A stretch of 64,000 nucleotides of DNA from Candidatus Eiseniibacteriota bacterium (GTDB lineage: Bacteria; Eisenbacteria; RBG-16-71-46; JACRLI01), in the NCBI GenBank assembly GCA_016235265.1, contig JACRLI010000004.1, positions 171,485 through 235,484 on the forward strand, written 5' to 3'. Each line of letters starts with the position of its first letter. The first letter of the stretch is position 1. Below the pieces are notes generated by a model. The model was not told the DNA's origin and did not search any database. It saw only the letters and a program-made list of their open reading frames with translations. The translations under genes were made by a program, and so were the position numbers. Below are positions 7,430 through 60,950 of the stretch, piece after piece.

Positions 7430-7489
7430 TGTCTCGCGGTCACGGGGCTTCGGCAGGTAACTGACCTTCAAGGAGTGCGCCCTGCAAAG

Positions 7490-17832: not shown

Positions 17833-18771
17833 CTAGGCGCCCACTTCCAACTCCAGCATCTCCACCAGCAGGTCGGCCATCGTCACGAGGTCCAGCATGT
17901 TGTGGTGGAAGACCGGGACCAGGGGGTAGGGGTCTCCGTTCTTGACGTAACGGTGATAGCGGCCGGGGATCTCCGAGCCGGGGACGTCGCCCATCCGGCG
18001 CCGGCCGACCACCTTCCACTCCAGCGTCTGCAGGCGGCAGTTCTCGAAGTGGCCGCGCCAGTGGCGGCGGGAATGCGGAAGCAGGTCCACGTGGAACGGG
18101 TCGGCCGGCACCTTGAGCCGGTGGTACGCCGCCCGCGTCTTGATCATGGGCCAGTCGAAGCTGCGGCCGTTGAAGGTGACCAGGTTGGGGCGCTCGTCCA
18201 GGAGGTCGATGGTGGCCCGGATCAGCGCCTTCTCCTCGGCGTAGTGGCGGGCGAAGTACTGGCGCAGAATCCAGTCGTTGCGGCCCGCCACCATCACGCC
18301 CGTGAGGAACACCGGGCACTGCACCAGGCCGGCGGTCTCGAGGTCCAGGAACAGCGCCTTGCCCAGGCCGTCGTCCAGCAGCTTCGCCAGCTGTTCGTGC
18401 AGGTCGAGCTTCAGGGCCCGCTTGCGCGCGGCGTCCAGCCGGCGCAGGAACCGGGCGGTGAACTTGTCCAGTTCGGAGCGGCGGCGCTCGTGGAGGAACA
18501 GGGGACCGTGCGCGGTGTCGATCTCGCCGCCGGGCAGGTACACCTCCACGCCCACGGGCTCGATGTGAACCTCACTGCGGGCCACGGAGGCGCCGGCGGA
18601 GCCCGCGCGGCGGGCGGCAGCGGGTCGCTTTGCAGCGTTGGCGCGTGCCGGGGCGCGGGCACCCGGGCGCGCCGCGCCGGTGCCCCCGGCGCGCGCCGCG
18701 CCCGCGCCGCCCGCGCCCCTCGTGCCCCGCTTGAGCGCCTGCAGGCGCTCCTTCATACGCTCAGACGCCAC
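17833..18771 (-). CDS. mrfB: RNase H-like fold exonuclease, YprB/MrfB-like
   Basis: The exonuclease motif is LFLDLETAG, followed by LVTFNGRSFDWPM and HHNMLDLV. It lies immediately downstream of, and overlaps, the DUF1998 helicase, as in Bacillus yprA-yprB (mrfAB). Confidence 0.7.
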   Translation of the reverse strand: MASERMKERLQALKRGTRGAGGAGAARAGGTGAARPGARAPARANAAKRPAAARRAGSAGASVARSEVHIEPVGVEVYLPGGEIDTAHGPLFLHERRRSELDKFTARFLRRLDAARKRALKLDLHEQLAKLLDDGLGKALFLDLETAGLVQCPVFLTGVMVAGRNDWILRQYFARHYAEEKALIRATIDLLDERPNLVTFNGRSFDWPMIKTRAAYHRLKVPADPFHVDLLPHSRRHWRGHFENCRLQTLEWKVVGRRRMGDVPGSEIPGRYHRYVKNGDPYPLVPVFHHNMLDLVTMADLLVEMLELEVGA

Positions 18772-21265
18772 CGAGGATGCTCCGCAGCAGCGTGCGGGTG
18801 GTCTCCTTCTCGGGGATGGGCCAGCCGTGCTGCACGTCGGGGTCCTGCTGCTGCGCCGGGCGCAGGATGGGCAGCCCCACGCACGAGGGGCAGCCGGCGG
18901 CGCAGGGGCATTCCTCCAGCAGGTCGCGCGCGGCGCGCAGGGCGTCCTCGAAACGCTGGAAACCCTGCTCGGCGAAGCCCAGCCCGCCGGGATAGCGATC
19001 GTAGAGGAACATGGTGGGCTTGCCGAAATTGGCGGAGTCCACGATGCCGCCCAGGTCGGAGCGGTCGCACATGGACATCAGCGGCACGATGGTGATGAGC
19101 AGGTTGCGCAGCCCCACCAGCCCCTCCACCGGGTTGCGGCCCTGGCGCACCACGTCCAGCCACGCCCGATCCGAGGGGCGGAACCACATCGCCTGGGTAT
19201 CCAGCTTGAGCCGCGGCAGCTCCAGCGCGCGGTAGCCGATGGAATCCAGCGAGTGGAACTTGATCTTCTTGAACCCCACCGTGGCCCACGAAACGGTGGC
19301 CTCGCCGGTGCGCGCCATTTCGCCGGGAAGGAACTCGCGCTCCGCGCCCTGCCTCGTCACGCGCAGGTTGGAGTCCAGCACCGCCTGGGTGTAGTAGTCC
19401 ACCTGGCGCTTCTCCACGTAGGCCACCTTCTGCGCCAGGTCCAGCTCGCGCACGAAGAACGTGTCGCCCTCGTGCAGGTAGATGGCCTCGGGGTAGACCA
19501 GCTCCGGTGCGCTGATGGCGTCCACCGTGGCCAGCACCGCGTTCTCGCGCCCGGAGTCCACGATGGTGAAGGTGTCGTCGGAGATGGTGCGCAGCGGCGT
19601 GCGCGCGGCGGGGAACTCGGTGCTGGACCAGTACCACGCGCCCTCGAGCTGCTTGAGCTGCCCCTCCTCCTCCAGGATGCGCGCCACCTCGCCCGCCAGC
19701 GGCCCGAACCACTCGTCGTCGCCGGGACGGATGGGCAGCTCGTAGGCCGCGCACGCCAGGTGCGAGGCCAGGATGTGCGGGTTCTCGGGGTCAATCACCG
19801 CGGCCTCGGGCGAAGCGGCGAAGAAATACTCGGGGTGGCGCATCAGGTACTGGTCGATGGGGTCGTTGTACGCCACCAGCACCGCCATGCTGGGGTGCCG
19901 CCCGCGCCCCGCGCGGCCCGCCTGCTGCCACGCGGAGGCGATGGTGGTGGGAAAGCCCACCAGGATGGACGCGTCCAGGCTGCCCACGTCGATCCCCAGC
20001 TCCAGCGCGTTGGTGCTCACCACGCCCTTGAGCTCGCCCGAGAACAGCCGGCGCTCGATGTCGCGCCGCTCCTCGGGCAGGTAGCCGCCCCGGTAGGGGC
20101 TGACCGCCTCGGCCAGGTCGCGCCGGTCGCGCGAGAGCGCCTCGCGCGCGTAGCGGTAGATCAACTCCGCCGTCACCCGCGCCCGGGTGAACACGATGCT
20201 CTGGACGTCGTCGCGCACCAGCGAGGTGAACAACTCCTGGCCCTCGACGTTGCTGCTGCGCCGCTCCATCTTCGCGTCGTCCAGGAACGGCGGGTTCCAG
20301 AACACAAAGTGCCGCGGCCCGCGCGGCGAACCGTCCTGGTCCACCAGGTCCACGGGCATGCCGAAGAGCGCCTCCGCCAGCTCCGAGGGGTTGCGGATGG
20401 TGGCCGAGGAGGCGATGAACACCGGGTCGGCGCCGTAGTGGCGCGCCACGCGCCGCAACCGGCGCAGCACGTGGGCCACGTGCGAGCCGAAGATGCCGCG
20501 GTAGCTGTGGATCTCGTCCACCACCACGTAGCGCAGCGAGGCGTAGAAGCGCGCCCAGCGGTCGTGATAGGGCAGCACCCCCTGGTGCAGCATGTCGGGG
20601 TTGGTGAGCACCACGTTGCCGGTGTCACGCAGCTTCTTGCGCGTGTGCGGGGTGGTGTCGCCGTCGTAGGTGCCGGCGCGCACCAGGTCGCCCAGCTCCG
20701 GCGCGCCGTCGGCCAGCCTGCGCAGCGCCTTGAGCTGGTCCTGCGCCAGCGCCTTGGTGGGGAAGAGGTAGAACGCGGTCGCGCCCGGCTCGGCCATCAG
20801 CCGCTCCAGCACCGGGAGGTTGTAGCACAGCGTCTTGCCGGAGGCCGTGCCGCTCACCACCACCAGGCTCCTGCCCTCGCGCGCCAGGTCCACGGCGCGC
20901 GCCTGGTGCCGGTAGAGCCGGGTGATCCCCGCGCGCTCCAGCGAGGCCGCGAGGGGCGCCGGGAGCGGCGCGGTGGGTTCGGCCCAGGCGGCTTCGCGAG
21001 GCGGGATGCGCTGCACGTGGACCACCTGGCCCGCGTAGTCGCGGCGGTGGGTGAGCTCCGCGAGGAAGCGGTCGAAATCGAACGACGGGCGGGCCGCGCG
21101 AGGGTCGGAGACGCGCGGCTTCCCGGGCGGATTCGGGAGCGACGCGGGGTCGTGACGCGTGGCCGGCACCAGCCCGAAGTCGGCGAAGAGGTTCTCTGGC
21201 GGCGGGCGGTGCGAGCCGGGATCCAGCACGCCGCCGTTGCTGCCGTCGAACTCGCCGCGCTTCAC
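18761..21265 (-). CDS. mrfA: DEAD/DEAH-box helicase with C-terminal DUF1998 Zn-binding domain, YprA/MrfA-like
   Basis: Motif I is SGTASGKT, motif II is VVDEIH, and the helicase C region contains QQAGRAGR. The C-terminal cysteine cluster is CPCAAGCPSC. I set the start to GTG at 21263-21265, which overlaps the upstream stop (GTGA). The rest of the 957-aa ORF looks like a GC-artefact extension. Confidence 0.85.
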   Translation of the reverse strand: MKRGEFDGSNGGVLDPGSHRPPPENLFADFGLVPATRHDPASLPNPPGKPRVSDPRAARPSFDFDRFLAELTHRRDYAGQVVHVQRIPPREAAWAEPTAPLPAPLAASLERAGITRLYRHQARAVDLAREGRSLVVVSGTASGKTLCYNLPVLERLMAEPGATAFYLFPTKALAQDQLKALRRLADGAPELGDLVRAGTYDGDTTPHTRKKLRDTGNVVLTNPDMLHQGVLPYHDRWARFYASLRYVVVDEIHSYRGIFGSHVAHVLRRLRRVARHYGADPVFIASSATIRNPSELAEALFGMPVDLVDQDGSPRGPRHFVFWNPPFLDDAKMERRSSNVEGQELFTSLVRDDVQSIVFTRARVTAELIYRYAREALSRDRRDLAEAVSPYRGGYLPEERRDIERRLFSGELKGVVSTNALELGIDVGSLDASILVGFPTTIASAWQQAGRAGRGRHPSMAVLVAYNDPIDQYLMRHPEYFFAASPEAAVIDPENPHILASHLACAAYELPIRPGDDEWFGPLAGEVARILEEEGQLKQLEGAWYWSSTEFPAARTPLRTISDDTFTIVDSGRENAVLATVDAISAPELVYPEAIYLHEGDTFFVRELDLAQKVAYVEKRQVDYYTQAVLDSNLRVTRQGAEREFLPGEMARTGEATVSWATVGFKKIKFHSLDSIGYRALELPRLKLDTQAMWFRPSDRAWLDVVRQGRNPVEGLVGLRNLLITIVPLMSMCDRSDLGGIVDSANFGKPTMFLYDRYPGGLGFAEQGFQRFEDALRAARDLLEECPCAAGCPSCVGLPILRPAQQQDPDVQHGWPIPEKETTRTLLRSILGGV

Positions 21266-22485
21266 CGGTGCGCACCCCGCGCGCGCTCCACCGAGCCCAC
21301 GCGCCAGCGCGAGCCGTCGAAGTGCATGCCGAAGCGGAAGGTGTCGGAACCGAGCCGGCTGGCCAGGAACACCGAGTCGGACTCCGTGTGGCCGGCCTGC
21401 AGCCGCCAGGACCCCTCGGGCAGCACCGCGTCGAGGCGCTGCGCCTCGGCGGCGTCCATCACGGCGGCGTCCCACGCGAAGCGGGACGCCTCGTCGCGTC
21501 CGCGCGGCAGCGATTCCAGGAACCCGGCCAGCGCCGCGTAGGGCGAGTCCTCCGGCTGCTCGGTCACGAACGTGAGGCTCCCCGCCCCCAGGCGCCAGAT
21601 GCGGCTCACGTAACGCCGCGGGCACGCGGCGCACTCTTCAAACGGACCGTGGCCCACCGGGCGGCGGATCACCAGCAGCGGCGCGGCGCCCGGCTGTTCC
21701 ACGAATCCGGGGTCCAGCCCGGCCGTCACCTCCCCGGTGATGGCGGCCGCGCCGGCCAGCGAGTCCGCGGGTGGCAGCGAGTCCCACGACGCCCATCCCC
21801 CCCTGCCCTGCAGGTCCAGGCCGTCGAATGCGAAGCGCGGCCCCTCGGCGGTGGAGATCACGCCGGCCGCGGCGGCGTGCAACCCGTCGTGGGTGAACCA
21901 TGCGGCGGACGCGACGCGCGTGGGGTTGCTGATCTGCAGCGACACCCAGCCGATGCGCCCGCCCAGCCGGTAGAAGAGGTAAGGCGCGCGGTAGCGCACC
22001 GCCGCCCGCGGACGGAAGGTGACCAGCACGGCCCGGGCGTCGCCCGGCGCCCGGGCCAGCTCCGCGGGGACACCCATCGAGTCCAGCAGCTTGCGCAGCA
22101 CCGGCAGGCCCGGCATGGAGTCCGCGGACGGCGGCGCCATGGAGGACAGCGCGCGCGCCCAGAGGTCGAAGCCGCGGCGCATCGAGGCGGGATCGGCGCC
22201 GGGATCCACGCCCAGCAGCGAATCGCCGCTGTCCAGCCAGGTTCCCGCGGAGTCCGGCGCGGGTGGCGGCGGAAGCTGGGCCGCGGTCTGCGGCCCGCGC
22301 GGGCCGCGACGCAGGCAGCCCGCGCGCTCGGCCACCGCCAGCAAGCCGCCCACGCCGAAGATCATCACCACCAGCAGCACGCCGACGGCGATGCGCAGGC
22401 TGGGCGGGCCGGGCAGGCGGGAGGGGCCATTCCCGGGGGCGTTTCCGGGGACGTCCGGGGACCCAGGGGAGCCCGGCGCGCTCAT
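21262..22485 (-). CDS. hypothetical membrane-anchored protein
   Basis: It has a Pro/Gly-rich N-terminus, one TM helix (IAVGVLLVVMIFGVGGLLAV) and a large domain with no match I recognise. It is translationally coupled on both sides. Confidence 0.55.
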   Translation of the reverse strand: MSAPGSPGSPDVPGNAPGNGPSRLPGPPSLRIAVGVLLVVMIFGVGGLLAVAERAGCLRRGPRGPQTAAQLPPPPAPDSAGTWLDSGDSLLGVDPGADPASMRRGFDLWARALSSMAPPSADSMPGLPVLRKLLDSMGVPAELARAPGDARAVLVTFRPRAAVRYRAPYLFYRLGGRIGWVSLQISNPTRVASAAWFTHDGLHAAAAGVISTAEGPRFAFDGLDLQGRGGWASWDSLPPADSLAGAAAITGEVTAGLDPGFVEQPGAAPLLVIRRPVGHGPFEECAACPRRYVSRIWRLGAGSLTFVTEQPEDSPYAALAGFLESLPRGRDEASRFAWDAAVMDAAEAQRLDAVLPEGSWRLQAGHTESDSVFLASRLGSDTFRFGMHFDGSRWRVGSVERARGAHR

Positions 22486-26804: not shown

Positions 26805-27281
26805 CTACAGGCGATCCTCGTCCCAGAGCCGGTTCGAGCGGAGCTTCAGGCGCAGGGCCGGGAACGCCTGCATGAGTCGCAGGCTGGTGAGCCCGCGCAC
26901 CTCCCGGGTCACGGACTCGGGGCGGTGCAGGCCGTCCAGCTCCACCAATACGTCCAGGCGGTCGGGGTTGGTGGCCACCGACACCAGCCGGTAGCCGGAC
27001 TGCTCCGACAGTTCCTCCAGCGCCTGGTTCAGCTCGAACGCCACGTCGCCCACCAGCACCGGCTTGCGGCCCACGGTGAACAGCGAGACCAGGTGCAGGC
27101 ATTCCAGCGCGACCATCTCCACGGCGCGCTTGCCCTGCGCGGTTCCCGCGGCCCCGGCCCCGGCGCCGGCTCCGGCCGCGCGCCTCACGGGCAGGGGGGT
27201 GATGCGCGCCGGGGACGAGCCGGGAGCTCCCTGTGAAGTGCGGGCGGCCGGACGATCGAACCTCGGAAATGCGGTCGACAT
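26805..27281 (-). CDS. IS200/IS605 TnpA (Y1 transposase)-fold protein, apparently catalytically dead and truncated
   Basis: After a low-complexity A/G/P-rich N-terminus, the segment LHLVSLFTVGRKPVLVGDVAFELNQALEELSEQSGYRLVSVATNPDRLDVLVEL...VRGLTSLRLMQAFPALRLKLRSNRLW follows the IS200 TnpA pattern. However, the HUH position reads LDV, and the ORF stops before the catalytic-Tyr helix. An AAGGAG lies 7 nt upstream of the ATG at 27281. Confidence 0.55.
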   Translation of the reverse strand: MSTAFPRFDRPAARTSQGAPGSSPARITPLPVRRAAGAGAGAGAAGTAQGKRAVEMVALECLHLVSLFTVGRKPVLVGDVAFELNQALEELSEQSGYRLVSVATNPDRLDVLVELDGLHRPESVTREVRGLTSLRLMQAFPALRLKLRSNRLWDEDRL

Positions 27282-27459
27282 GGCATGACTCCTTGCGCAA
27301 ATGTGCAGTTCAGGGGTGCACCTGCCCCACCGCGATGCGCGTCGGGGGGCCCTACGCACAGCGCGCGAGATGTTGATTCTTCGGCCCGGCCGCGCCGGGA
27401 CTCAAGGTGGGAGCGAACGAACCGGCGCTTCGCCGGACCGATCTCCGGGCTGCGCCCGG

Positions 27460-28252: not shown

Positions 28253-28282
28253 GTAACTTGTTGTAATATTGCGTAATACCAT
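28253..28282. repeat. three helically phased direct repeats GTAAY (period exactly 10 bp) in an AT-rich island
   Basis: GTAAC is at 28253, GTAAT at 28263 and GTAAT at 28273, within ggtaacttgttgtaatattgcgtaatacca. It is the most AT-rich stretch I saw in the lexA-upstream intergenic region. Confidence 0.6.
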
Positions 28283-49565: not shown

Positions 49566-49892
49566 ATGTCCAGTGTTGCCGCGGTCAGCGATACCACCTT
49601 CGAGCAGGAAGTCCTCAAGTCGGGCACCCCGGTGCTGGTGGACTTCTGGGCCGAGTGGTGTGGCCCGTGCCGGGCCCTCGGGCCCACCATCGACGAGATC
49701 GCGCGCGAGAAGGCCGGATCGCTGAAGGTGGTCAAGATGAACGTCGACGAGAACCCGTCGATCTCGGTGCAGTTCGCCATCCGCAGCATCCCGACCCTGC
49801 TGCTGTTCAAGGACGGCAAGGTGGTCGAGCAGCTGATCGGCAACATGCCCAAGCAGGCCCTGCTCTCGAAGCTCACGCCCCACCTGGGCTAG
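49566..49892 (+). CDS. trxA: thioredoxin
   Basis: The active site is DFWAEWCGPCR and the product is 108 aa. An AGGAG lies upstream of the ATG at 49566. Confidence 0.9.
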   Translation: MSSVAAVSDTTFEQEVLKSGTPVLVDFWAEWCGPCRALGPTIDEIAREKAGSLKVVKMNVDENPSISVQFAIRSIPTLLLFKDGKVVEQLIGNMPKQALLSKLTPHLG

Positions 49893-49946
49893 CGCGCCGC
49901 GCGGTCCCCGCCAGCGGAGCGCGGGCACTCCCGGGACATGGAATCC

Positions 49947-49995
49947 GCGAAGTAAGGAAGGCTGGGTCCGCGCGGACCCAGCCTTCATGCTTCGC
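49947..49995 (+). terminator. long GC-rich hairpin downstream of trxA
   Basis: A perfect 13-bp stem, GAAGGCTGGGTCC/GGACCCAGCCTTC (49957-49986, loop GCGC), is extended by an outer GCGAAG/CTTCGC stem. There is no U-tract. Confidence 0.45.
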
Positions 49996-50209
49996 ATCGT
50001 CCTTGTGCAGTCCCGTGTCGCGGCCTCGGGAGGCTCGTACGAGGGTGGCGGTGCGGCATCCTTGCCGCGCCCGCCACCAAGGGGCGCGTCCCGAACTGTT
50101 CCTCATGACCCATTCGAGACGACGTCCACACTCGTGTATCGAGCGAACGGAGTATTGCACCCGCGTAAACACACTCACAACGAATTTCTGTTCCGCCGCG
50201 CGAAAAAGT

Positions 50210-50237
50210 CGCGCGTCGCGCCCATGCGCGACGCGCG
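50210..50237. other. perfect 12-bp-stem hairpin (CGCGCGTCGCGC-ccat-GCGCGACGCGCG)
   Basis: I checked the pairing base by base. It lies 17 bp upstream of DnaA box 1. Confidence 0.7.
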
Positions 50238-50253
50238 CACTCCTCTTCCGAAG

Positions 50254-50262
50254 TTATCCACA
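50254..50262 (+). promoter_or_regulatory. perfect DnaA box TTATCCACA (1)
   Basis: This is an exact match to the canonical 9-mer. The extended shared context is AGTTATCCACA. Confidence 0.7.
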
Positions 50263-50361
50263 ACGGGATCGCACACTCCTCGAATGCTCCGCGCGGCACC
50301 GGCGGAAGCGGAAGCGCGCGCGTACCGGCGCGCACACGCGCGAGTTCCGGTGGGCGCCGAG

Positions 50362-50370
50362 TTATCCACA
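50362..50370 (+). promoter_or_regulatory. perfect DnaA box TTATCCACA (2)
   Basis: This is an exact match in the same orientation, 108 bp from box 1, with the same AGTTATCCACA context. Confidence 0.7.
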
Positions 50371-50435
50371 GCCCGGGCGCCGCGGGCCGCCACCATCGTG
50401 AACGGACTCCGCGGGAGAACTGGCTCGGGCTATGC

Positions 50436-51641
50436 TCAGCGCAGGATCTTCGCGGGCCTCGGGCACTCGGGCGCCAGCGCGCCGATCACCCCGCACGGCT
50501 CGCGGTCGGCGGGACCGCCGGGCCGCGGGTGAAAATTGCCGTTGAGGTAGTTGCAGAACCCGGGGTCTTCCTCGATCTGCTGGCCCGCGCCGGGGATTTC
50601 GCCCGGCGGCGAGGAGCCCGGGATCTCGGTGGGATTGGCGGCGTAGTAGAAATTCTCGGGTGTGTTGTGCCAGGCCAGGTTGCAGCGCAGATCCGGGTAG
50701 GCCGCGCGCCCGGCCACCAGGCCGCCGCCCTGGTTGGCGCTGATGTTCTCGGCGAGCAGGTTGCGCACCACCAGCGGGCGGCAGTTCAGGAAGAACAGCC
50801 CGCCGCCCCAGTGCTCCACCCGGTTGGCCACGATGGTGTTGCCGCGCACTTCCACGCGCGTGAGCGTGCCGATTTCCGCCCCGCCGCCCCACCCGGCGTC
50901 GTTGCGGTCCATGACGTTGGCCTCGAGCAGGCCCTGGGTGCGGAAGTCCAGGAACACCCCCCCGCCGTGGTAGTCGGCGTGGTTGCGCAGGAAGCGGTTG
51001 CCGCGGATGGTCACCAGCGAGCAGGCGCGGGCGTAGAGGCCGCCGCCGTTGCTGGCGGAATTCCCCTCGAAGGTGTTGCCCTCCAGCACCGCGGGCGACT
51101 CGAACAGCGCCACCGCCCCGCCCACCCCCTTGCCGATCTCCAGCACGTTGTCCACGAAGATGTTGTCCCGCACCCGCACCGCCGCCCGGAAGGCCAGCAG
51201 CCCGCCACCGCCCTCGCGCGGCGTGTCCGGCAGGTACGTGCCCCGGCCGCGGGTGACGGTGAATCCCTCCACGCGGGTGAGGCTGTCGGCGTCGCGGACC
51301 AGGATCACGGAGCCGCGGTAGTCGCCCAGGATCCGGGTGGACAGGGCGCCGTCGCGGCTGCGCAAGGTGACGCCCGAAGGCAGGACCAGCCGTTCCTCGT
51401 AGTCACCCGGCAGGACCAGCACGGTGTCGCCGGGCTGCACCCGGTCCAGCGCCCTCTGGATGGACCGGCTGCCGGCCACCGGGGCCACCTCGACCGTGGC
51501 CGCCGGCGCCGGGGACGGGACCGGCCACGCACCCGTGACCAGCGCGCTCAGCGCGCCGGCGAAGATCGCGGCACGGAAACGGATGCACGGGCGGGTATTG
51601 GGCGCGGCCGGAGGGGTGGTCGGACGGTGGCGGTACGACAT
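50436..51641 (-). CDS. right-handed parallel beta-helix repeat protein (pectate-lyase/NosD-like fold), secreted
   Basis: A signal-like N-terminus is followed by repeated G-x-N-x-h-x-x-N turns (e.g. RDNIFVDN, EGNTFEGN, RGNRFLRN, RGNTIVAN). Confidence 0.75.
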   Translation of the reverse strand: MSYRHRPTTPPAAPNTRPCIRFRAAIFAGALSALVTGAWPVPSPAPAATVEVAPVAGSRSIQRALDRVQPGDTVLVLPGDYEERLVLPSGVTLRSRDGALSTRILGDYRGSVILVRDADSLTRVEGFTVTRGRGTYLPDTPREGGGGLLAFRAAVRVRDNIFVDNVLEIGKGVGGAVALFESPAVLEGNTFEGNSASNGGGLYARACSLVTIRGNRFLRNHADYHGGGVFLDFRTQGLLEANVMDRNDAGWGGGAEIGTLTRVEVRGNTIVANRVEHWGGGLFFLNCRPLVVRNLLAENISANQGGGLVAGRAAYPDLRCNLAWHNTPENFYYAANPTEIPGSSPPGEIPGAGQQIEEDPGFCNYLNGNFHPRPGGPADREPCGVIGALAPECPRPAKILR

Positions 51642-53816: not shown

Positions 53817-56800
53817 TCAATGCGCCTCCGCGGCATCGTCCCACACCGGCCCGAAGAGGCCATCCAGGACCGACGTGTTCGCGTATCCGGGCACCACCCG
53901 CGAGAGGATGTCGTCCGAGAGGTCGGACAGTTCCGGCCGCAACCCGCCCCAGGTGAGCAGCGCCATCACCCCCACCGGCGGCGTGGCCAGTCCCGCCTGC
54001 ACCGCCAGCACGCCCAGGAGGTCCAGGGTGGTCTCCCCCAGCAGGACGCTCTCCGAGGCCAGGCGCGCGTTCTCCACCTGAACCGGGGTCAGGCCTCGCG
54101 CGTTCTCGAGGGCCATCTGGACGCGAATGCCGGCCACCAGCTGGTGGCCGATCATGGCGCGGTCCAGCGTGCGCGTCGCGGGCACCTTGGTCACGGCCCC
54201 GCGCACCACGGCCCGGGTCACCACCGGGCACACCCGGCCCAGTCCGGCGACCACGGAGAGGGTCGCGTCCTTTCCCGGGAACGTGAGCAATCCGTCGTGG
54301 ATCGAGCGCGCAGCACGGGTGACGGCCAGGTAGGCCTGGTAGAGCTTGCGGCCCTGCTCGCCCGCCCGGTCCCCGCCCACGGTCTTCAGCAGGCGGATGG
54401 CCAGGAGCAGCTTGTCCGGCACGCCGATGGTGCCGCGCACGATCACCGGGGGCAGGATGTAGCGCGGCGCCAGCCCGGCGGGCGCGTCCACCGGGGAGCC
54501 GGCCAGGCCCTCGGGGTCGGCGTAGGTGAGCGGATCGCCGAAGGCGTAGCCGTACGGCGGGGCGCCGGAGTCCCGGAGCGGATCCGGTGAGACGAAGCGC
54601 GCGGTGCCCGGGTCATAGAAGCGGTTCACCAGGTAACACCAGCCGGTCTCCGGATCCTGCTCCGCCCCCAGGAAGCCCAGCGTGGGGCGATCCGCGCCCT
54701 CGAAACGCGACAGCTCGCCGTAGGGCAGGAACTCCTGCTGGAAGCGGACCGCCCCGTCTTCGTCCACGCCCAGGCGCACGGAACCCAGCGCGTCGCAGAG
54801 ATAGGCGACGAAGGCGCCGTCGCGCTCGACGGTGCCGAGCAGCCGGGCCCCCGCGCGCACGTACTCGCGGAGCACGCGGCCCGAGGAATCGGCCTCCGCC
54901 AGCAGCGTGCCATCCTCGTCGCGCAGCTGGAACGTGGTCACGCCGCCCACGCGACGGCGGGTGCGCCAGCCGCGCGCGTCGTATCCATAGACGGCCGAGT
55001 CGGTGACGTCGGCGGCCCGCCCGGCGACCGTCACCAGCCGCCCGGCGGACGACCAGGCGAGCGTGAGGGCGCCGAGGGTGTCCGAGCCCACCAGGCGGGT
55101 GCGTTCGGCCAGCGCGCCGCCGGCGTCATAGGCGAATTCTTCGCGTCCGTGCGGCGCCCGGCGCACGCGGGAGAGGCGCGGCCCGTCCAGGTCGAAGGCC
55201 GCCGATTCGAGGTCACTGCCCACCGAGTCCAGCTCCCCGCCGGGGGCGTGGCGGTAGGTGACGGCGGGAGAGCCCGGTTCGCTGGAGAAGCGCACCGAGG
55301 CGAGACGCCCCGCCGGATCGCGCGCGAAGTCCCAGCGCACTCCCCCGGCGGCGGCACGCGCGGCGCACCGTCCGTCCGGGTCGCGCTCGTGGAACTCCTG
55401 GAACAGGGTGCGCCCGCGCGACTGTCCCACCTGGGAGACCGGCGCACCGCCCGCGTCGCGCTCCCAGCGCTGCTCCAGCGCACCGGCACGCTGCGCGGCG
55501 ACGCGGCCCGCGGCGTCGCGGGTAAAGGCCGCCAGCTCCCGCCCGGAGCCGTGCTCCTCGAGCCGAGCCACGCGGCCAGTGGCGGGATCGTAGTAGTGGT
55601 TCACGCGCCGGCCGTCCGGGTAGATGATGGAGGTGACGCGGTCCAGGCGGTCGTATTCGAACTCCAGCGAAAGCGGACTGGCCACTCCCGCGAAGTGGCA
55701 GGTCTTGCGGACCACCCGGCCCCGGCCGTCGCAGTCGAGTTCCACCACATCCACGGCGCCTCGCTCGTCGCGTGTCTCCACCCGGGTGAGGGAGCCGGGC
55801 GAGGCGCTGCCGTCGTACGAGTAGCGGGCAGTCCAGCGGGAGTCTGCGGGCAGCGCGCCGGCGTCGGCCAGGGCCTGCGCGGAGGCCTCCGTGAGACCCG
55901 CGGAGGTGGCTTCCTCCAGCAGCCGGCCCAGCGCGTCGTAGCGCAGGCACGTCCAGCCGGCCCCGGCCGCGCCACGCTCGTCGCGGGTGAACACCGGGCG
56001 TCCGGCGAGGTCCCACACCGTCACGCGGCGTGAACCGTCGGGGTTCTCGACCAGCAGGCGGTGGCCCGCGAGGTCGTGGTGAAACCGGGTGACGTGCCCG
56101 CCGGGTGCGTGCCACGCGGTGACCCGGCCCGCGGCGTCGTATTCGTAGTACCGGGTCTCGAAGGGAACCGATGCGCCGGCGGCGTACTCCGCGGCGGCCA
56201 GCAGCAGCCCGCGCGCATCCCGGGCGCGCAGCGAGGAGACTCCGCCGGGGTGCCGGGCGATCTCCACGGCGCAGAACCCCGGCGTGCCGCCCGGCCGGCC
56301 CAGGCCGAGAACCTGGAGATCCGGGACGGTGCGGTGCTCGACCCGGGTGGTGCCGGCCGGCCCCGCCTCGGCCGTGGGGCGCCCCAGCTCATCGTGGGTG
56401 TAGGTCACGCCGGCAGCTCCAGCCCTCCCCGCCTGCACCAGGCGTCCGAACGCGTCGTACGCGTACTCCATGGCGGCGCCAGACTCCCCGGCGCGGCGCA
56501 GGCTGCGCGGGCGGCCCAGGCCGTCGAGATGACACACCGCCAGCAGGCTCTCCAGCATGGCCGGATACAGCGCCGCGTAGTCGGTGGCATACCCCGCACC
56601 CGACGTCCGGGTGAGCACCCGCGACGGCCACACCGTGAGGTCGTAGGGCGGCAGCAGCGCCCCGCGCGGCGCGACCGGCGACCTGGGAGTCGGCGGCGGA
56701 GGGCCGGTCATCACGTCGCCGGGCAGCGCGCGGGTGCGCTCGCGGCCTTCCGCGTCGTAGCCGTGCGAGGTGAGGTGCCCCGCGCCGTCGGCCTCGCGCA

Positions 56801-59123
56801 ACAGCTCCCCTTCCCAGCCGAACGACTGGTAGGCCTGCAGGCTGCTCCCGGCGTCCGGGTGCAGCGTGATCATCACCGGGTAGGCGCCTCCGGGGCAGTC
56901 GGCAAAGGCGATGGTGTTGGGGATGGGCCGCGGGTCGTACTCGAACTCCACCGCCTCCCCCAGGGGGCCCGTTGCGCGCACCATCCGCGAGGGCTCGGTC
57001 TCGCTCCAGCTGAAGGTCCGCGTGGCCACGCGCGCGTCGTCGAGCCGGATGTGCTCGGCGGTGACGCGGCCGTAGGCGGGCTCCCGCTCGTACCAGGTCT
57101 CGGAGAGGAGCGCGCCCGTGACCGGGGCCAGCCGGCGCGCGCGCGCGGGGAGCTGCACCGAATAGCGCCCCGTTCCGCTCCAGGGCTGGTGCAGCCCGGG
57201 CGCGTCGAAGTACTCCACTTCGGTGCGCACCCCGGCCGCATCGGTGCATGCCGTCACCCGCGCGAGGCTGTCGTAGGTGGTGGTGGTGGTGTAGCCGCCC
57301 AGAGGCGCGCCCGCGGAGGTGGCCCGGAAGGTCTTCGAGGCCGGCAGCAGCGTGCCGGTGTAATGGTCGCCTTCGGGCACGGCGTCGTAGTCCATGGCCA
57401 GGGCGTGCGTCTCGCCGCAGGCGAGGCTCACCGAGGACTCCACCAGCCGGGCGGCCCAGCGGCTGCGGGTCGGGCCGCCGTGCGTCTGGGGCAGGCACGG
57501 GTACTTGCGAAAGGTGTGCACCATGCGGAACCCGGACGCCAACGCGGCGGCCCGCGCGGCCTCGCGCGACGCGACCGGGGCGCCCGGCCCGGGGGCCCCG
57601 GCGGGAAGGCTCGACGCGCCCGGCGCGCCTCCTGCCGGCGGGGACGGCGACAGCGGCGGCCCGCCGTCGTAGTCCACGTTCGTCAGGTACCGGTACGCGT
57701 CGGACTCGAACGGCGCGCCCACGGCGGGCCGCTCGCTCCAGTCGTAGGCGAGGGCGACCACCTGCACCGGGGCCTGCCCCGCAGCCTCGCGGATCTCCAC
57801 GCGCGAGACCATCGGCGCCAGGCACGGCGAACGCCCGGTGGCCCGCCACGCGCCGTCCTCCCCGCGCAGCGTGGGGTCCGGGCAGGCGGGACGCGTCGCC
57901 GGAAGCGGGACGAAGCCGTAGGTGGAACTGCCGCCTTCCGGGTAGTCCACGCCGGCAAGCCGCATGGCGCGCACGTCCGCGCTGTCCGAGCAGTTCGTGA
58001 GCCACGCCTCGGAGCGGTCGTCGGGCTCGTGGCGGAAGCCGGTCACCCGGCCGGTTCGGTCCGTGAAGTGGTCGAGATAGTACAGGTACGACCGGCGCGG
58101 CCGGGCCGCGCGGTCCGTGTACCACCGCTCCGAGAAGTCCAGCTCGTGCTGGCCGGGGCCGTAGCTGGTCACGACGGACACGTGGCACTCGCCGCCCTGG
58201 GGGGAGGCGTCCACGAGGATGTTCACGCTCCGTCCCGACTGGTCGGTGACCCGCACCGCCGTGGGATGCAGCCACGCGGAGCGTCCGCCGCCGGAGTCGG
58301 CGTACTCGTAACGGACGGTGAGCGAGCAGCCCGGCGTGGGCCCGGCCACCCGGGAGAGGCGGAATGCACGCGGGCCTTCGTTGTTGTTGTACGAGTAACC
58401 GGGCCAGCGCAGCGTGAGCGGCACTTCGTCGAAGGTCCACGTGCTGCCGTCCGGCTTCTTCACCGTGAGCGCGCGCCGGGTGTATGCGGGCGGGGCCAGC
58501 GAGGCGCGCCAGGCGAGTGAGGGATCGTTGGGCAGCATCGCGGGATTGCCGGAGGTGGGCAGGTTGCCGGGGTAGCCGAAGGCCACCGGGGCACCCTCCG
58601 AGGAGGCCAGTTCCACGTCGCCGTTGGATCCCCCGGACGCATACGCCTTGTCGCAGATGGAGTAGCCGGAGGTGCGCCAGCACCCGTCCACCACCAGGCC
58701 GGACGCGTCGCGATGCGGCTGGCCCGGCACCTCGCCGTTGAAGAGGTAGGGCGCCAGGTTGGCGGTCCACAGCACGTGGCCGTTCAGCCCCAGGCTCCAC
58801 TCTCCGAAGGCGGCCTCGGCATCCACGTAGGCCGAGGCGGCCGTGAAATCGAACCGGTGATGCGACACCGAGCCCGAGTAGTCGAGCGTGAGCACCACGT
58901 CCATGCCCCCCGGCTCCGGCCAGCGAAGCAGGGTGCGGTGATACGAGGGCGAGCCGGCGAACAGGCCCACGGACTCGCCGGGCGCGATCTCAACCTGGTC
59001 CTCCCCGAGGCGGCCGCCCAGGGCGTCCCGCGGATCGGGCGCATCCCCGGCCGCGGCCTGCGCCGGGCCCCAGATCGCGATGACAGCCGCCGCCAGGACC
59101 GCCCGAAGTGTGCGTCCCGTCAT
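53817..59123 (-). CDS. RHS/YD-repeat protein with RHS core and a 228-aa C-terminal domain of unknown type
   Basis: The protein has a signal peptide and many YD repeats (YDALGRL, YDAFGRLV, YEYDAAGRV...). The RHS core end reads NRFYDPGTARFVSPDPL...YGYAFGDPLTYADPEGL and is followed by a unique C-terminal region. Confidence 0.9.
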   Translation of the reverse strand: MTGRTLRAVLAAAVIAIWGPAQAAAGDAPDPRDALGGRLGEDQVEIAPGESVGLFAGSPSYHRTLLRWPEPGGMDVVLTLDYSGSVSHHRFDFTAASAYVDAEAAFGEWSLGLNGHVLWTANLAPYLFNGEVPGQPHRDASGLVVDGCWRTSGYSICDKAYASGGSNGDVELASSEGAPVAFGYPGNLPTSGNPAMLPNDPSLAWRASLAPPAYTRRALTVKKPDGSTWTFDEVPLTLRWPGYSYNNNEGPRAFRLSRVAGPTPGCSLTVRYEYADSGGGRSAWLHPTAVRVTDQSGRSVNILVDASPQGGECHVSVVTSYGPGQHELDFSERWYTDRAARPRRSYLYYLDHFTDRTGRVTGFRHEPDDRSEAWLTNCSDSADVRAMRLAGVDYPEGGSSTYGFVPLPATRPACPDPTLRGEDGAWRATGRSPCLAPMVSRVEIREAAGQAPVQVVALAYDWSERPAVGAPFESDAYRYLTNVDYDGGPPLSPSPPAGGAPGASSLPAGAPGPGAPVASREAARAAALASGFRMVHTFRKYPCLPQTHGGPTRSRWAARLVESSVSLACGETHALAMDYDAVPEGDHYTGTLLPASKTFRATSAGAPLGGYTTTTTYDSLARVTACTDAAGVRTEVEYFDAPGLHQPWSGTGRYSVQLPARARRLAPVTGALLSETWYEREPAYGRVTAEHIRLDDARVATRTFSWSETEPSRMVRATGPLGEAVEFEYDPRPIPNTIAFADCPGGAYPVMITLHPDAGSSLQAYQSFGWEGELLREADGAGHLTSHGYDAEGRERTRALPGDVMTGPPPPTPRSPVAPRGALLPPYDLTVWPSRVLTRTSGAGYATDYAALYPAMLESLLAVCHLDGLGRPRSLRRAGESGAAMEYAYDAFGRLVQAGRAGAAGVTYTHDELGRPTAEAGPAGTTRVEHRTVPDLQVLGLGRPGGTPGFCAVEIARHPGGVSSLRARDARGLLLAAAEYAAGASVPFETRYYEYDAAGRVTAWHAPGGHVTRFHHDLAGHRLLVENPDGSRRVTVWDLAGRPVFTRDERGAAGAGWTCLRYDALGRLLEEATSAGLTEASAQALADAGALPADSRWTARYSYDGSASPGSLTRVETRDERGAVDVVELDCDGRGRVVRKTCHFAGVASPLSLEFEYDRLDRVTSIIYPDGRRVNHYYDPATGRVARLEEHGSGRELAAFTRDAAGRVAAQRAGALEQRWERDAGGAPVSQVGQSRGRTLFQEFHERDPDGRCAARAAAGGVRWDFARDPAGRLASVRFSSEPGSPAVTYRHAPGGELDSVGSDLESAAFDLDGPRLSRVRRAPHGREEFAYDAGGALAERTRLVGSDTLGALTLAWSSAGRLVTVAGRAADVTDSAVYGYDARGWRTRRRVGGVTTFQLRDEDGTLLAEADSSGRVLREYVRAGARLLGTVERDGAFVAYLCDALGSVRLGVDEDGAVRFQQEFLPYGELSRFEGADRPTLGFLGAEQDPETGWCYLVNRFYDPGTARFVSPDPLRDSGAPPYGYAFGDPLTYADPEGLAGSPVDAPAGLAPRYILPPVIVRGTIGVPDKLLLAIRLLKTVGGDRAGEQGRKLYQAYLAVTRAARSIHDGLLTFPGKDATLSVVAGLGRVCPVVTRAVVRGAVTKVPATRTLDRAMIGHQLVAGIRVQMALENARGLTPVQVENARLASESVLLGETTLDLLGVLAVQAGLATPPVGVMALLTWGGLRPELSDLSDDILSRVVPGYANTSVLDGLFGPVWDDAAEAH

Positions 59124-59135
59124 CCTCTCCCCCCT

Positions 59136-60941
59136 TCAGTCCAGCCGGACCAGTTTGCCGATGGTCTCCGCGCTCTCCGATCCGGAACGCGCGGTGACGC
59201 GGTAGAAGTACACGCCGCGAGCCACAGGCTCACCGGTGGCGTCTCGCCCGTCCCAACCGAGGCGCTGGCGGCCCTCGCCGAAGTCGCCCTCCAGTCCGCG
59301 CACGCGTCGCCCCGCGACGGTGAACACGTCCACGCGCACGCGCGCGGACCGGGTGAGCGCGAACAGGAAGTCGGTGGCGGTGCGCACCGGGTTGGGGTAG
59401 TTGAAGACGTCCCGCAGGGCCAGCGGCAGCTCGACCTGGAATCGGGCCCCGCCCAGCGTGTCGCCGCGCGCGCAGGCGACGGCGGTATAGGTGCCGCTCT
59501 CGAGGCTCAACCGAAGCTGCACCGCGGAGCGGCCGGTGGCGCGGCCCACGGCCGCCGCACCGCGGAACACCCGGATTTCCACCTCCGGATCCCCGGAGAG
59601 CGCCGGTTCCTCCAGCGCCCCGCGCAGCTCCACCTCCCCACCGGTCAGCCGCAGCACCGGGCCGGCGGCGGAGCCTTCGGCGCCATTCACCCACAGGCGA
59701 AACCGGCCGGGCGGGAGCAACCCGGCCGGCGCGGAGGCGCTCACGCCGTGGTGCCGGTGACCCAGCTCGTGGCGGAACAGCCTCGGGCGGCCGGCCGAGT
59801 CGCTTCCAGCGTCGCTCACGAAACCCAGGGCGGTGCCCCCGTCGTGCGCGGCCCACGCCGCCCGCGTGCCCGGGGGCGCGGAGGCGGAACAGGCTGCCAG
59901 GTCGGTCTGCGAGAGGGAGCGCCCGGGTCGCGCGCCGTCGCCCCAGGTCCCAAGCGGCGAACCGTCGGCGGCCCACGCGGCCAGGCGGCCGTCGCGGCCC
60001 AGGGCGAGGATTCTCTGGCCGCGGTCCGCCAGCACGGCGACACCCCCCACCGGGCCCACGGGCGCGGTGGCCGGCCAGCCGGTCGCGGCGTGGAAGCCGC
60101 GCAGGCCGTCGCCGTCCCAGCGGCCCACGCCACCGGCCAGCGGCACCAGCAGGCAGGGCGCCGCGTCGGATCCCACCCGCGCGGGCTGTGGCGCGGCGGT
60201 GACGGGCACGGAAGTCTGCCGCTCCTGGTAGACCGGCATCGAGCCCGCGTAGAAGAGGCAGAACCACCGGCCGGCCGGGCCTTCCTCCACCCCACCCAGC
60301 ACATCCGGAACGCCGTCGCCGTCCGCGTCGGCGAGACGCAGGCGCGGCCGGCCGGTGAAGTTCGTCAGGGGAGAGATGGGCCGGCGGGCGGACGGATCGC
60401 CGGCCTCGGAGGCCAGCACGTCGCCGGACGTGCCGACCCACACCCAGTCGGGGCGACCGCGGCGCTCGATGTCGCCCAGCTCGGGGGTGTCGGCCATGTC
60501 GCGCGGACAGGGGATCTCTGCGAAGCCCGCCGCGGGCTGCCCGTCGAGGCGCCAGGCGCGCACGGTCTGCCCGCCGTCCCACGACTTCAGCAGGCAGACC
60601 ACCTCCGGCTGGCCATCGCCGTCGAGGTCCTGAAGCCGGGGAACGCCCGCGGGCCACGCGCCGGACGCCGCGACGGGCCAGCCCGGCGCGGGACGCCCGT
60701 ATTCGTCCCACAAGAAGATTCGGCCGCCGTCGTCGCGGCTCACCAGGCGGAAGCCGCCGCCCACCGCGCCCGCGGAGAGCGAGGCCGACGGCAGGGCCGC
60801 GGCGTCCACGGCGAGGAACACCGCCCACAGCAGCGCGGCGATGCCGGCGGCCAGGGCCAGGAACACGACCCAGCGGACCGTCGAGAAGAGCACGGCCCGG
60901 GCGCCCGAGTCCGGGCGGGACCGTTCGTGGCGTGCGCTCAT
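59136..60941 (-). CDS. FG-GAP/VCBS-repeat protein with C-terminal FlgD-Ig/T9SS-like sorting domain
   Basis: It has an N-terminal TM anchor and DxDxDG repeats (LQDLDGDGQPEVV, LADADGDGVPDVL). The C-terminus reads NYPNPVRTATDFLFAL...GVYFYRVTARSG...GKLVRLD. Confidence 0.75.
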   Translation of the reverse strand: MSARHERSRPDSGARAVLFSTVRWVVFLALAAGIAALLWAVFLAVDAAALPSASLSAGAVGGGFRLVSRDDGGRIFLWDEYGRPAPGWPVAASGAWPAGVPRLQDLDGDGQPEVVCLLKSWDGGQTVRAWRLDGQPAAGFAEIPCPRDMADTPELGDIERRGRPDWVWVGTSGDVLASEAGDPSARRPISPLTNFTGRPRLRLADADGDGVPDVLGGVEEGPAGRWFCLFYAGSMPVYQERQTSVPVTAAPQPARVGSDAAPCLLVPLAGGVGRWDGDGLRGFHAATGWPATAPVGPVGGVAVLADRGQRILALGRDGRLAAWAADGSPLGTWGDGARPGRSLSQTDLAACSASAPPGTRAAWAAHDGGTALGFVSDAGSDSAGRPRLFRHELGHRHHGVSASAPAGLLPPGRFRLWVNGAEGSAAGPVLRLTGGEVELRGALEEPALSGDPEVEIRVFRGAAAVGRATGRSAVQLRLSLESGTYTAVACARGDTLGGARFQVELPLALRDVFNYPNPVRTATDFLFALTRSARVRVDVFTVAGRRVRGLEGDFGEGRQRLGWDGRDATGEPVARGVYFYRVTARSGSESAETIGKLVRLD

Positions 60942-60950
60942 GTCGCCCCC

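Follow-up and report, generated by a model that had tools for sequence, protein, structure and literature searches.

DnaA, the replication initiator, also regulates the transcription of a limited group of protein-coding genes. The DnaA-regulated promoters outside oriC include those of nrdAB, dnaA, mioC, polA, purH and rne in Escherichia coli and that of sda in Bacillus subtilis. The locus described here lies within a 64-kb stretch of DNA (hereafter the window) and resembles these promoters in having a few consensus DnaA boxes (TTATCCACA or TTTTCCACA, with similar flanks) which are upstream, off-origin and conserved among relatives. It differs from them in that the putative target is a non-coding RNA and not a protein gene, and in that the boxes are single and located at -76 to -222, unlike the double boxes at or abutting the known promoters. 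The datA, DARS1 and DARS2 loci of E. coli and the DnaA-box clusters of B. subtilis are, like this locus, conserved intergenic DnaA-type loci outside the origin, but here the boxes are fewer (1-3), are not paired at 2-3 bp and are tied in position to a promoter. A further parallel is CcnA from Caulobacter crescentus, a non-coding RNA at the origin which is described as activated by CtrA and linked to cell-cycle regulators (PMC8959179). In both cases a small RNA gene stands beside sites for a master regulator of replication or the cell cycle; the two differ in that the locus described here is most likely not an origin and its sites are of the DnaA type.

A preliminary description of the window had reported two perfect DnaA boxes in the gap between the 3' ends of trxA (plus strand) and a beta-helix gene (minus strand), and had offered three roles for the region: a replication origin, a datA/DARS-like regulatory site or an unannotated RNA gene. 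The flanking genes are as it described them. In our interpretation the gap is probably a compact conserved non-coding module of an uncultured Candidatus Eisenbacteria lineage, composed of the following features.

49566-49892, plus strand: trxA, thioredoxin, 108 aa (Pfam Thioredoxin, E = 2.5e-31), convergent with the RNA gene
49945-50144, minus strand: predicted structured small RNA gene (about 50144 to about 49950), from the conserved block, folding, promoter and terminator
49957-49986, no single strand: bidirectional terminator hairpin, a perfect palindrome with 17-nt arms (inverted repeat I2, 100% complementary)
50029-50147, minus strand: conserved RNA core, with a 5' hairpin, hairpin A (covarying) and hairpin B (near-invariant)
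50151-50180, minus strand: predicted promoter-like element of the RNA gene, architecture conserved in all eight versions of the locus
50181-50205, minus strand: A/T-rich tract resembling an UP element, directly upstream of the -35 element
50200-50237, minus strand: intrinsic terminator, from a terminator scan (inverted repeat I8, 50210-50237)
50252-50262, plus strand: DnaA box 1 (AGTTATCCACA), promoter-proximal
50360-50370, plus strand: DnaA box 2 (AGTTATCCACA), distal
50436-51641, minus strand: beta-helix protein gene (Pfam Beta_helix, E = 7.9e-11), the 3' end of which bounds the gap

Read along the minus strand, the module would comprise the beta-helix stop codon, one to three boxes, a terminator (in this window), the UP-like tract, a promoter of the sigma-70 extended -10 type, an RNA of approximately 150-215 nt and a terminator shared with trxA. 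Thus, of the three proposed roles, that of an RNA gene does account for the gap, but the boxes are upstream of this gene and not inside it.

The two copies of TTATCCACA (50254-50262 and 50362-50370) are both on the plus strand in the same extended context, as had been reported. The earlier estimate of about 0.06 chance copies was reproduced by 100 dinucleotide-preserving shuffles, which gave an expectation of 0.06 and never yielded two or more copies (0/100), and an exhaustive scan of both strands of the window, in which no other copies had been noticed, returned just these two. Both conform to the DnaA-box 9-mer TTWTNCACA, and they are separated by 108 bp, approximately ten helical turns. Five more sites with one mismatch, all TGATCCACA or TCATCCACA, are scattered over the window in a number within the chance range. 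The strings acgTCCACA and gtaAACACA, listed previously as weaker boxes, are present but neither is kept as a box in relatives; the former is located within the RNA gene and the latter within the spacer of its promoter.

For comparison we used eight distinct syntenic versions of the locus from Candidatus Eisenbacteria metagenomes, which were reached through TrxA homologues at 69-82% identity and in which the beta-helix gene is also syntenic. Versions L123, L125, L254 and L255 are among those that come from soil and peat metagenomes. Every version (8/8) contains one to three boxes of the form TTWTCCAC(A/C) upstream of the RNA promoter, in one orientation throughout; L253 and L254 have three. In seven versions there are 13 boxes in 3.0 kb of gap sequence versus one in 116 kb outside; with the eighth (L339) included, there are 16 boxes in approximately 3.4 kb of gaps and none within 400 bp on either side of them, an enrichment over flanking DNA of about 500-fold. 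Across relatives the motif reads R-G-T-T-W-T-C-C-A-C-M; no change is seen at core positions 2 and 4-8, and the variation is confined to positions which DnaA tolerates. TTWTNCACA is matched exactly by nine of the 16 sites and with one mismatch by the other seven (TTTTCCACC six times and ATTTCCACA once). The DNA around the boxes cannot be aligned between versions, and yet the boxes are kept. On this comparison they are non-random and very probably functional DnaA-type sites.

The position of the boxes was examined relative to both neighbouring elements. In the window the centre of box 1 is at about -114 from the predicted RNA start, with the box 73 bp upstream of the -35 element; the centre of box 2 is at about -222, and this box is 65 bp past the beta-helix stop codon. 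A box is found 65-73 bp upstream of the -35 element (-105 to -114 from the predicted start) in six of the eight versions, being the distal one in L339. The other two versions have a single strong box each, at 87 bp (L123) and 55 bp (L126) upstream of the -35 element, L126 having one additional site with one mismatch. Over all versions, 35-87 bp separate the promoter-proximal box from the -35 element downstream of it; the distance between this box and the beta-helix stop codon, measured in seven versions, varies between 10 and 173 bp. Counted from the -35 element, the centres of the boxes show helical phasing (R = 0.71), with a peak at a period of 10.3-10.5 bp and no phasing at periods of 9.5 bp and below or 11.5 bp and above. 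The Rayleigh p value is about 1e-3, and the phasing was equalled by 52 of 20 000 random placements, both figures treating eight kin sequences as independent. As judged from these measurements, box position is tied to the RNA promoter rather than to the beta-helix gene, because of the 65-73 bp range in six of eight versions, the phasing and the variable distance from the stop codon.

Promoter control had been considered not obvious for a region between convergent 3' ends. This view is not supported: a conserved promoter-like element at 50151-50180 is predicted to fire leftward, 73 bp from box 1. It consists of a -35 element TTGTGA (50180-50175), an 18-nt spacer and an extended -10 element TGC-AATACT (50159-50151). 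The architecture TTGnnn-17/18-(TGn)(A/C)AT(A/C)(A/C)T is retained in 8/8 versions while the spacer sequence varies freely. The promoter matches eight of 12 consensus positions and was missed by a generic scanner with a threshold of 9/12. In relatives the position of the UP-like tract is occupied by CAGAAATTCG, GAGAAAGAAG, CGTTTTTCA and CAGAATTTCA. The hairpin at 49957-49986 is common to trxA on the plus strand and the small RNA on the minus strand; the homologous hairpin of relatives has compensatory changes in seven of 11 pairs and is followed by minus-strand U-runs, for example CCUGUUUUGUUU in L129. The terminator at 50200-50237 has a 12-bp stem with 11 G-C pairs and a 4-nt loop followed by ACTTTTTCGC, and is not clearly conserved as a terminator in relatives. 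Situated between box 1 and the RNA promoter, it probably terminates transcription coming from the beta-helix gene.

The RNA block is likewise conserved in 8/8 syntenic versions. The predicted transcript, with its 5' end placed from the promoter and its 3' end from the terminator, would be about 200 nt in length in the window and about 150-215 nt in relatives. Two marks of a small RNA gene are found: a promoter and a terminator on one strand with no conserved open reading frame, and a secondary structure backed by covariation. The folding z-scores are -4.6 and -4.9. A covariance model of the core (R1) scores 125.3 bits in the window, where the element is single-copy. In the core alignment 89.8% of paired cells are complementary, versus 36-47% when the partners are slid, and five pairs show double changes, or 12 counting the terminator. 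The covariation score was equalled in none of 500 shuffles, the alignment of eight sequences giving this test modest power. Many G-U variants in the core are compatible with the minus strand only. The plus strand was rejected as the RNA strand: read on that strand, about 30 G-U cells of hairpin A turn into A-C mismatches, and the minus strand alone also agrees with the promoter and the U-runs. We also considered a small protein for the conserved block and discarded it; indels shift the frame across relatives and the start codon is not conserved. Pairing of the RNA with the trxA translation-initiation region was similarly abandoned, since the signal was inconsistent (z from -2.1 to +1.4).

Core identity (columns 58-116) is 0.69-0.98, compared with 0.61-0.74 for third codon positions of trxA, the one exception to this ranking being the near-duplicate pair L129/L130 (0.93 against 0.91), and the RNA is near-invariant over about 60 nt. 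No match in the window reached the Rfam gathering thresholds, with 6S, SRP, tmRNA, RNase P and riboswitches among the families covered, and permissive Rfam searches, of the window at E <= 10 and of four relatives at E <= 1, returned nothing that overlapped the core. Viral contigs scanned for the core gave no matches. The RNA was absent from 79 trxA loci of other phyla, retrieved from reference genomes with the TrxA alignment as bait and searched with nhmmer in all cases and with the covariance model in 25; at close range the same bait returned just one Eisenbacteria genome, which was already known. The beta-helix protein as bait gave distant matches only in reference genomes, and identical-protein look-ups found neither the TrxA nor the beta-helix protein of the window on record. 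A metagenome scan with a loose pattern produced at least 120 GC-rich chance matches, and the element was in none of the matches listed. To our knowledge the Eisenbacteria phylum has no cultured members and no described non-coding RNAs. The predicted RNA is backed by covariation and forms a new family whether or not DnaA controls it. Its near-invariance, a conservation above that of the synonymous sites of a neighbouring essential-type gene and its absence from Rfam make it a candidate for curation and for structural and functional work.

The proposal that headed the preliminary description, a candidate oriC, is not supported. The locus shares with oriC the intergenic position of its perfect DnaA boxes and a local drop in GC content, and the AT-richer stretch and a strong predicted promoter nearby could help unwinding. 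There is also a shallow local dip in cumulative G-C at 46-52 kb. Set against this, origins typically have at least 4-5 boxes in both orientations, while there are two here and one to three in relatives, all one-way and without box pairs, with two lineages having one strong box. No unwinding element was found in the gap and trio-like runs occur in none of the seven gaps scanned, the AT-rich segment being occupied by the conserved promoter and RNA. Two checks had been suggested for the full contig or genome, the location of dnaA/dnaN and the cumulative GC skew; over the window, both count against an origin. The window genes include no dnaA, dnaN, gyrB, recF, parAB, rnpA or mnmG, and a DnaA signature scan agrees; linkage of origins to dnaA/dnaN is common but not universal. 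The skew over the window is flat and noisy and reaches a lower minimum at 10 kb than at 46-52 kb, a 64-kb window having limited power here. To the left and right of the gap the genes keep to the minus strand over at least 10 kb, in this window and in L123 and L126, with no orientation flip. Finally, about 120 bp of the gap carry RNA-type covariation, which an origin does not explain. In our view the boxes are most likely not a replication origin, and a chromosomal oriC, or part of a bipartite origin, unlinked to dnaA is scarcely tenable.

The other origin-like features can be explained more simply. The lower GC content at 50100-50200 is real (54% per 100 bp) but not exceptional, since the window contains five to ten further stretches just as AT-rich, the lowest at about 28.2 kb. 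The 30-bp GC minimum of the gap (40% at 50163) is inside the RNA promoter, and ten places in the window are as low. The RNA promoter and the UP-like tract, together with the 5' half of the RNA itself, account for this stretch. Similarly, the strong hairpins do exist, but they are the common trxA/RNA terminator (49957-49986), the RNA helices and the minus-strand terminator (50210-50237), not features of an origin. Every origin-like feature of the first reading belongs to the RNA gene, its promoter or a terminator. Thus, two perfect DnaA boxes between seemingly convergent genes need not denote an origin: the promoter that such a region seems to lack can be provided by an RNA gene that escaped annotation. 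A genome-wide DNA scan for two AGTTATCCACA sites at a distance of 90-110 bp was uninformative, with matches in generic origin regions of a wide range of phyla.

The interpretation which we favour is that DnaA regulates transcription of the small RNA gene, to which we assign a probability of about 0.5 on the sequence comparisons above. We infer that DnaA is the protein that binds the boxes, owing to the near-universal TTATCCACA/TTTTCCACA specificity of DnaA domain IV. DnaA would then use these boxes in its role of transcription factor: bound about 75-220 bp before the start site, on a single helical face, it would modulate firing of the RNA promoter, in one direction or the other, and the RNA level would track DnaA availability and replication-initiation status. 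Sites bound in vivo in E. coli, gagTTATCCACAg and tacTTTTCCACAg, have flanks similar to those of the boxes here (PMC11317965). Several observations count against DnaA control. The boxes, at -76 to -222, are far upstream for a classical activator or repressor, a strong terminator stands between box 1 and the promoter in the window, and the boxes are single and not double boxes spaced by 2-3 bp. In E. coli DnaA prefers such double boxes in vivo, and consensus single boxes were bound in 13 of 32 cases (PMC11317965). Furthermore, boxes and RNA are both present in 8/8 versions, so that their co-occurrence cannot separate a promoter role from two independent elements. The fuller proposal, in which DnaA at phased upstream boxes sets the RNA level and thereby provides an RNA-based link from replication-initiation status to gene control, is put forward tentatively.

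The boxes might instead hold or remodel DnaA and so tune a distant origin, serving, like datA, DARS or the DnaA-box clusters of Bacillus, to titrate DnaA or to control its nucleotide state, with the neighbouring RNA being incidental or its transcription exploited. This would agree with a conserved non-origin intergenic cluster of consensus boxes, and both the regular 30-31-bp spacing in three lineages and the phasing on one face would suit a DnaA array or looped complex. The strongest non-origin DnaA sites of E. coli are of this kind (PMC11317965; PMC12371093). However, one to three boxes, with a single strong one in L123 and L126, offer little capacity, and their position is constrained relative to the promoter. 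The spacing of 2-3 bp typical of DnaA-bound sites, including DARS and datA (PMC11317965), is absent here, the best neighbouring 9-mers matching at most four of nine positions. We regard a role of this type as unlikely.

It is less probable still that another, lineage-specific DNA-binding protein regulates the RNA promoter and that the identity of its sites with DnaA boxes is coincidental. The conserved purine-G flank at -2/-1 does slightly extend the classical 9-mer, position 9 tolerates C (six of 16 sites end in C) and each site stands alone a long way upstream, in contrast to the typical DnaA operators of E. coli. Nevertheless, the invariant core T-T-W-T-C-C-A-C is exactly the DnaA box, and domain IV of DnaA keeps its specificity from one bacterial phylum to another. 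The TTATCCACA and TTTTCCACA variants are moreover both bound by DnaA in E. coli, with similar flanks (PMC11317965). A last alternative is that bound DnaA or another protein acts as a roadblock or insulator which stops read-through from the beta-helix operon into the RNA promoter. The boxes always follow the 3' end of the upstream operon and precede the RNA promoter, and lineages other than this one might rely on a roadblock, the clear intrinsic terminator being present in this window only. Such a device would need neither helical phasing with the promoter nor a fixed orientation, and a single box would be a weak block, all of which makes it very improbable.

If DnaA control of the RNA is correct, a conserved small RNA would add a post-transcriptional arm to the DnaA regulon and would be the first small-RNA member of such a regulon; a literature search found no DnaA-regulated small RNA. 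The logic would be analogous to that of sda, the DnaA-dependent checkpoint gene of Bacillus.

As to what the RNA itself might do, it was compared with protein-sequestering RNAs of the CsrB/RsmZ type. These have multiple exposed GGA or CANGGANG motifs, whereas there is one such hairpin here. The GGA count in the RNA is 2-5 versus about two expected, and chance alone would produce the CANGGANG motif about 0.4 times in each kb. The DNA of the window and of the relatives examined showed no CsrA gene. With one matching hairpin and no enrichment of GGA, the idea of a CsrA sponge is retained as a weak lead only. The hairpin concerned is hairpin B, the apex of which reads CA[A/U]GGA[U/C]G and fits the Rsm/CsrA motif, as in CsrB/RsmZ, varying at its two N positions only. 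That hairpin B is nearly invariant on both of its strands suggests that the RNA binds a protein.

The gap between the 3' ends of trxA and the beta-helix protein gene (window 49893-50435) contains two perfect copies of the DnaA-box-like 9-mer TTATCCACA, both embedded in the same longer context, AGTTATCCACA. No third perfect copy is present on either strand of the 64 kb window, which has a base composition of about 70% G+C; dinucleotide-preserving shuffles (n = 100) gave a mean expectation of 0.06 copies, and none contained two. The two boxes, their context and their setting are thus as the preliminary description had them. Five sites elsewhere in the window have one mismatch, all of them TGATCCACA or TCATCCACA, which is near the chance level. 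The comparisons described below lead us to place an undescribed small RNA gene in the gap. The features are as follows.

49566-49892, plus strand: trxA, flanking the gap
49957-49986: terminator hairpin shared by trxA and the small RNA
about 50144 to 49950, minus strand: small RNA gene, ends predicted
50210-50237, minus strand: terminator followed by TTTTT, probably ending the beta-helix transcript
50254-50262, plus strand: box 1
50362-50370, plus strand: box 2
50436-51641, minus strand: beta-helix protein gene, flanking the gap

The TrxA and beta-helix proteins of the window have no entries of their own on record. Relatives were found through TrxA homologues (69-82% identity) on contigs with matching gene order, namely GNAT (-), trxA (+), gap, beta-helix (-), cupredoxin (in some only), DUF502 (-) and RHS (-). 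Once duplicates were removed, eight distinct gaps remained, those of the window and of the related loci L123, L126, L129, L130, L253, L254 and L339. Both the element and the synteny are missing at TrxA loci of 64% identity or less and at those of other phyla. All eight gaps share a block with about 60 nt nearly invariant and about 120 nt well conserved (window 50029-50147). The most conserved half of this block has identities of 0.69-0.98, compared with 0.61-0.74 for trxA third codon positions in the same pairs, the sole exception to this margin being the near-duplicate pair L129/L130 (0.93 versus 0.91). Since the block exceeds the adjacent third codon positions in identity, it is under purifying selection. 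On the minus strand, each of the eight versions has a promoter-like pair before the block, TTGnnn and (TGn)(A/C)AT(A/C)(A/C)T, with a 17-18 nt spacer of freely varying sequence and an A/T-rich tract immediately upstream of the -35. Next on this strand comes a hairpin that is rich in G+C and trailed by a U-run; in seven of the eight versions this hairpin also terminates the convergent trxA. In L254 the RNA and trxA have separate terminator hairpins (that of the RNA at 1370-1412), so that the RNA does not require overlap with the 3' end of trxA.

The RNA folds much better than shuffled sequences do (z = -4.6 and -4.9). In the full alignment 90% of cells pair, compared with 38-47% when partners are slid, and 12 pairs show two-sided changes (1-5 in the slid controls); for the core in a covariance-model alignment the values are 89.8% and 36-47%. 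Hairpin A of this core contains about 30 G-U cells, which would become A-C mismatches on the opposite strand, so that the RNA is assigned to the minus strand. Both strands of hairpin B are almost invariant, with one compensatory change (G-C to A-U, in L130). An unannotated RNA gene had been among the earlier suggestions for the gap, and it is borne out by the conserved block, fold, covariation and promoter/terminator architecture. A protein-coding reading of the block was rejected, as indels break any reading frame. The element occurs once in the window, was not found in viral contigs and matches no Rfam family even at E <= 10. Within the 5' and 3' segments of the RNA (50015-50048 and 50127-50143), we note two alternative partners for an invariant CGAG close to the 5' end. 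It can form a small 5' hairpin with an upstream YUCG or bind an invariant CUCG immediately 3' of hairpin B; with the latter partner, UGG/CCA pairing would compete against the hairpin's outer stem. Two mutually exclusive conformations may exist, neither of which is favoured by covariation.

In every version the stretch that separates the beta-helix stop codon from the promoter of the RNA has at least one box and at most three, giving 16 sites, all on one strand; the stretch is otherwise unalignable. Their motif is R-G-T-T-W-T-C-C-A-C-M. Within its core, positions 2 and 4-8 never vary, position 3 is either A or T, and position 9 is A at 10 sites and C at the other 6. In the first seven versions there are 13 boxes in 3.0 kb of gaps versus one in 116 kb of surrounding Eisenbacteria DNA, and no extra box with up to one mismatch lies within 400 bp on either side of the gaps. 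In vivo sites of Escherichia coli DnaA (gagTTATCCACAg at oriC, datA and purH; tacTTTTCCACAg at mioC) show both box variants and the same purine-G flank (PMC11317965). Because of this conservation, density and match, the boxes are most probably functional sites with DnaA as the binder. GATC or CGATCG words lie a few bases from boxes in the window, L253 and L254, which may be chance in G+C-rich DNA; the window also encodes an N6_N4_Mtase-family DNA methyltransferase (6524-7489, minus strand), for which the neighbouring ORFs that were scanned offer no obvious restriction partner.

The placement of the boxes links them to the promoter of the RNA. A box lies 65-73 bp upstream of the -35 in six of the eight versions (centre -105 to -114 from the predicted start), and the promoter-proximal box lies 35-87 bp upstream overall; from the beta-helix stop codon it is anywhere between 10 and 173 bp away (seven versions measured). 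Extra boxes are spaced by 30-31 bp in three lineages, by 20 and 39 bp in L254 and by 108 bp in the window. Taken as one set, the boxes have centres that keep helical phase with the -35 (resultant length 0.71, period peak 10.3-10.5 bp), a signal that collapses at periods of <= 9.5 and >= 11.5 bp. A Rayleigh test gives p of about 1e-3, and among 20,000 random placements 52 match or exceed the observed value, although the eight sequences are related and the positions therefore incompletely independent.

The reading that we prefer, with a probability of roughly one half, is that DnaA would occupy the upstream boxes along one helix face and modulate firing of the RNA promoter, so that the RNA level would track DnaA availability. 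A titration or DARS/datA-like control site would also employ DnaA boxes, but the low box number and the missing close pairs make it unlikely. A different protein reading the same word is less likely still, and we consider it very improbable that the boxes act as a roadblock to transcription running on from the operon upstream.

We give hardly any credence to a replication origin, the headline candidate of the preliminary description. Two lineages have a single strong box, all boxes point in one direction, and closely spaced pairs and DnaA-trios are absent. No dnaA, dnaN, gyrB, recF, parAB, rnpA or mnmG is among the genes annotated across the window, and in the window, L123 and L126 the genes to either side keep to the minus strand over 10 kb or more, with no strand switch. 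The proposed skew check, run over the window, gave a noisy cumulative G-C walk in which the dip at 46-52 kb is shallower than that at 10 kb. The origin-like features of the preliminary description can all be explained more simply. The AT-richer stretch is real, but is promoter and RNA 5' half. Over 30 bp, G+C within the gap is lowest at 50163 (40%), inside the conserved promoter, and ten places in the window are equally low, the lowest near 28.2 kb. Likewise, the weaker boxes exist as strings, but acgTCCACA is part of the RNA, gtaAACACA is part of the promoter spacer, and the relatives conserve neither as a box; the hairpins are present as the shared terminator, RNA helices and minus-strand terminator. 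RNA-type covariation would also be out of place in an origin.

In its working, the module comes closest to a DnaA-regulated promoter. It does not pass the tests applied for an oriC or for a core of DARS/datA type, and its RNA matches no known family. CcnA of Caulobacter is an origin-encoded RNA tied to CtrA, whereas the RNA here has DnaA-type boxes. The DnaA regulons that our literature search turned up consist of protein genes, and it yielded no small RNA under DnaA boxes; new here are DnaA boxes that would serve a non-coding RNA gene, by a mechanism that we infer, and a new RNA family. The anatomy of the module is both solid and unexpected; sampling of this uncultured lineage is thin, at eight versions.

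Thioredoxin reduces ribonucleotide reductase, the genes of which are classic DnaA targets. The boxes, which lie beyond the RNA gene as seen from trxA, cannot act on the trxA promoter. The initiation region of trxA is not consistently complementary to the RNA. Near-invariance of both hairpin B arms suggests recognition by a protein. The apex, CA[A/U]GGA[U/C]G, fits the Rsm/CsrA motif CANGGANG (PMC6849547), with variation confined to the two N positions; a CsrA-type site is a weak lead, because there is a single such hairpin, GGA is unenriched and chance alone would produce the motif about 0.4 times per kb.

Several further observations concern the loci. L129 has a sub-threshold match to the Rfam sodF sRNA (3147-3228, minus strand; 33.4 bits versus a gathering score of 46; E = 0.048), intergenic between DUF502 and RHS genes. 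L124/L132 (DATKKS010000188.1) is titled 'Candidatus Saccharimonadales bacterium' yet has 72% G+C, is syntenic with the Eisenbacteria loci and carries a nearly identical RNA; the bin is probably mislabelled or contaminated. The AT-richest spot of the window (about 28.1-28.3 kb; 30% G+C per 30 bp at 28253) adjoins an IS200-like Y1 transposase domain (26805-27401, minus strand), and the surrounding 28-32 kb, at 65% G+C, may be a mobile or foreign insert. Two neighbouring genes at 17833-21637 (minus strand) are reminiscent of the DNA-repair pair MrfA-MrfB; one encodes a helicase (DEAD/Helicase_C/MrfA-Zn-binding) and the other an exonuclease of the RNase_H_2 superfamily. A 1768-residue RHS-repeat protein followed by an FG-GAP/FlgD-Ig protein (53817-60950, minus strand) is retained downstream of the locus in relatives and could represent a secreted toxin or a system of the cell surface.
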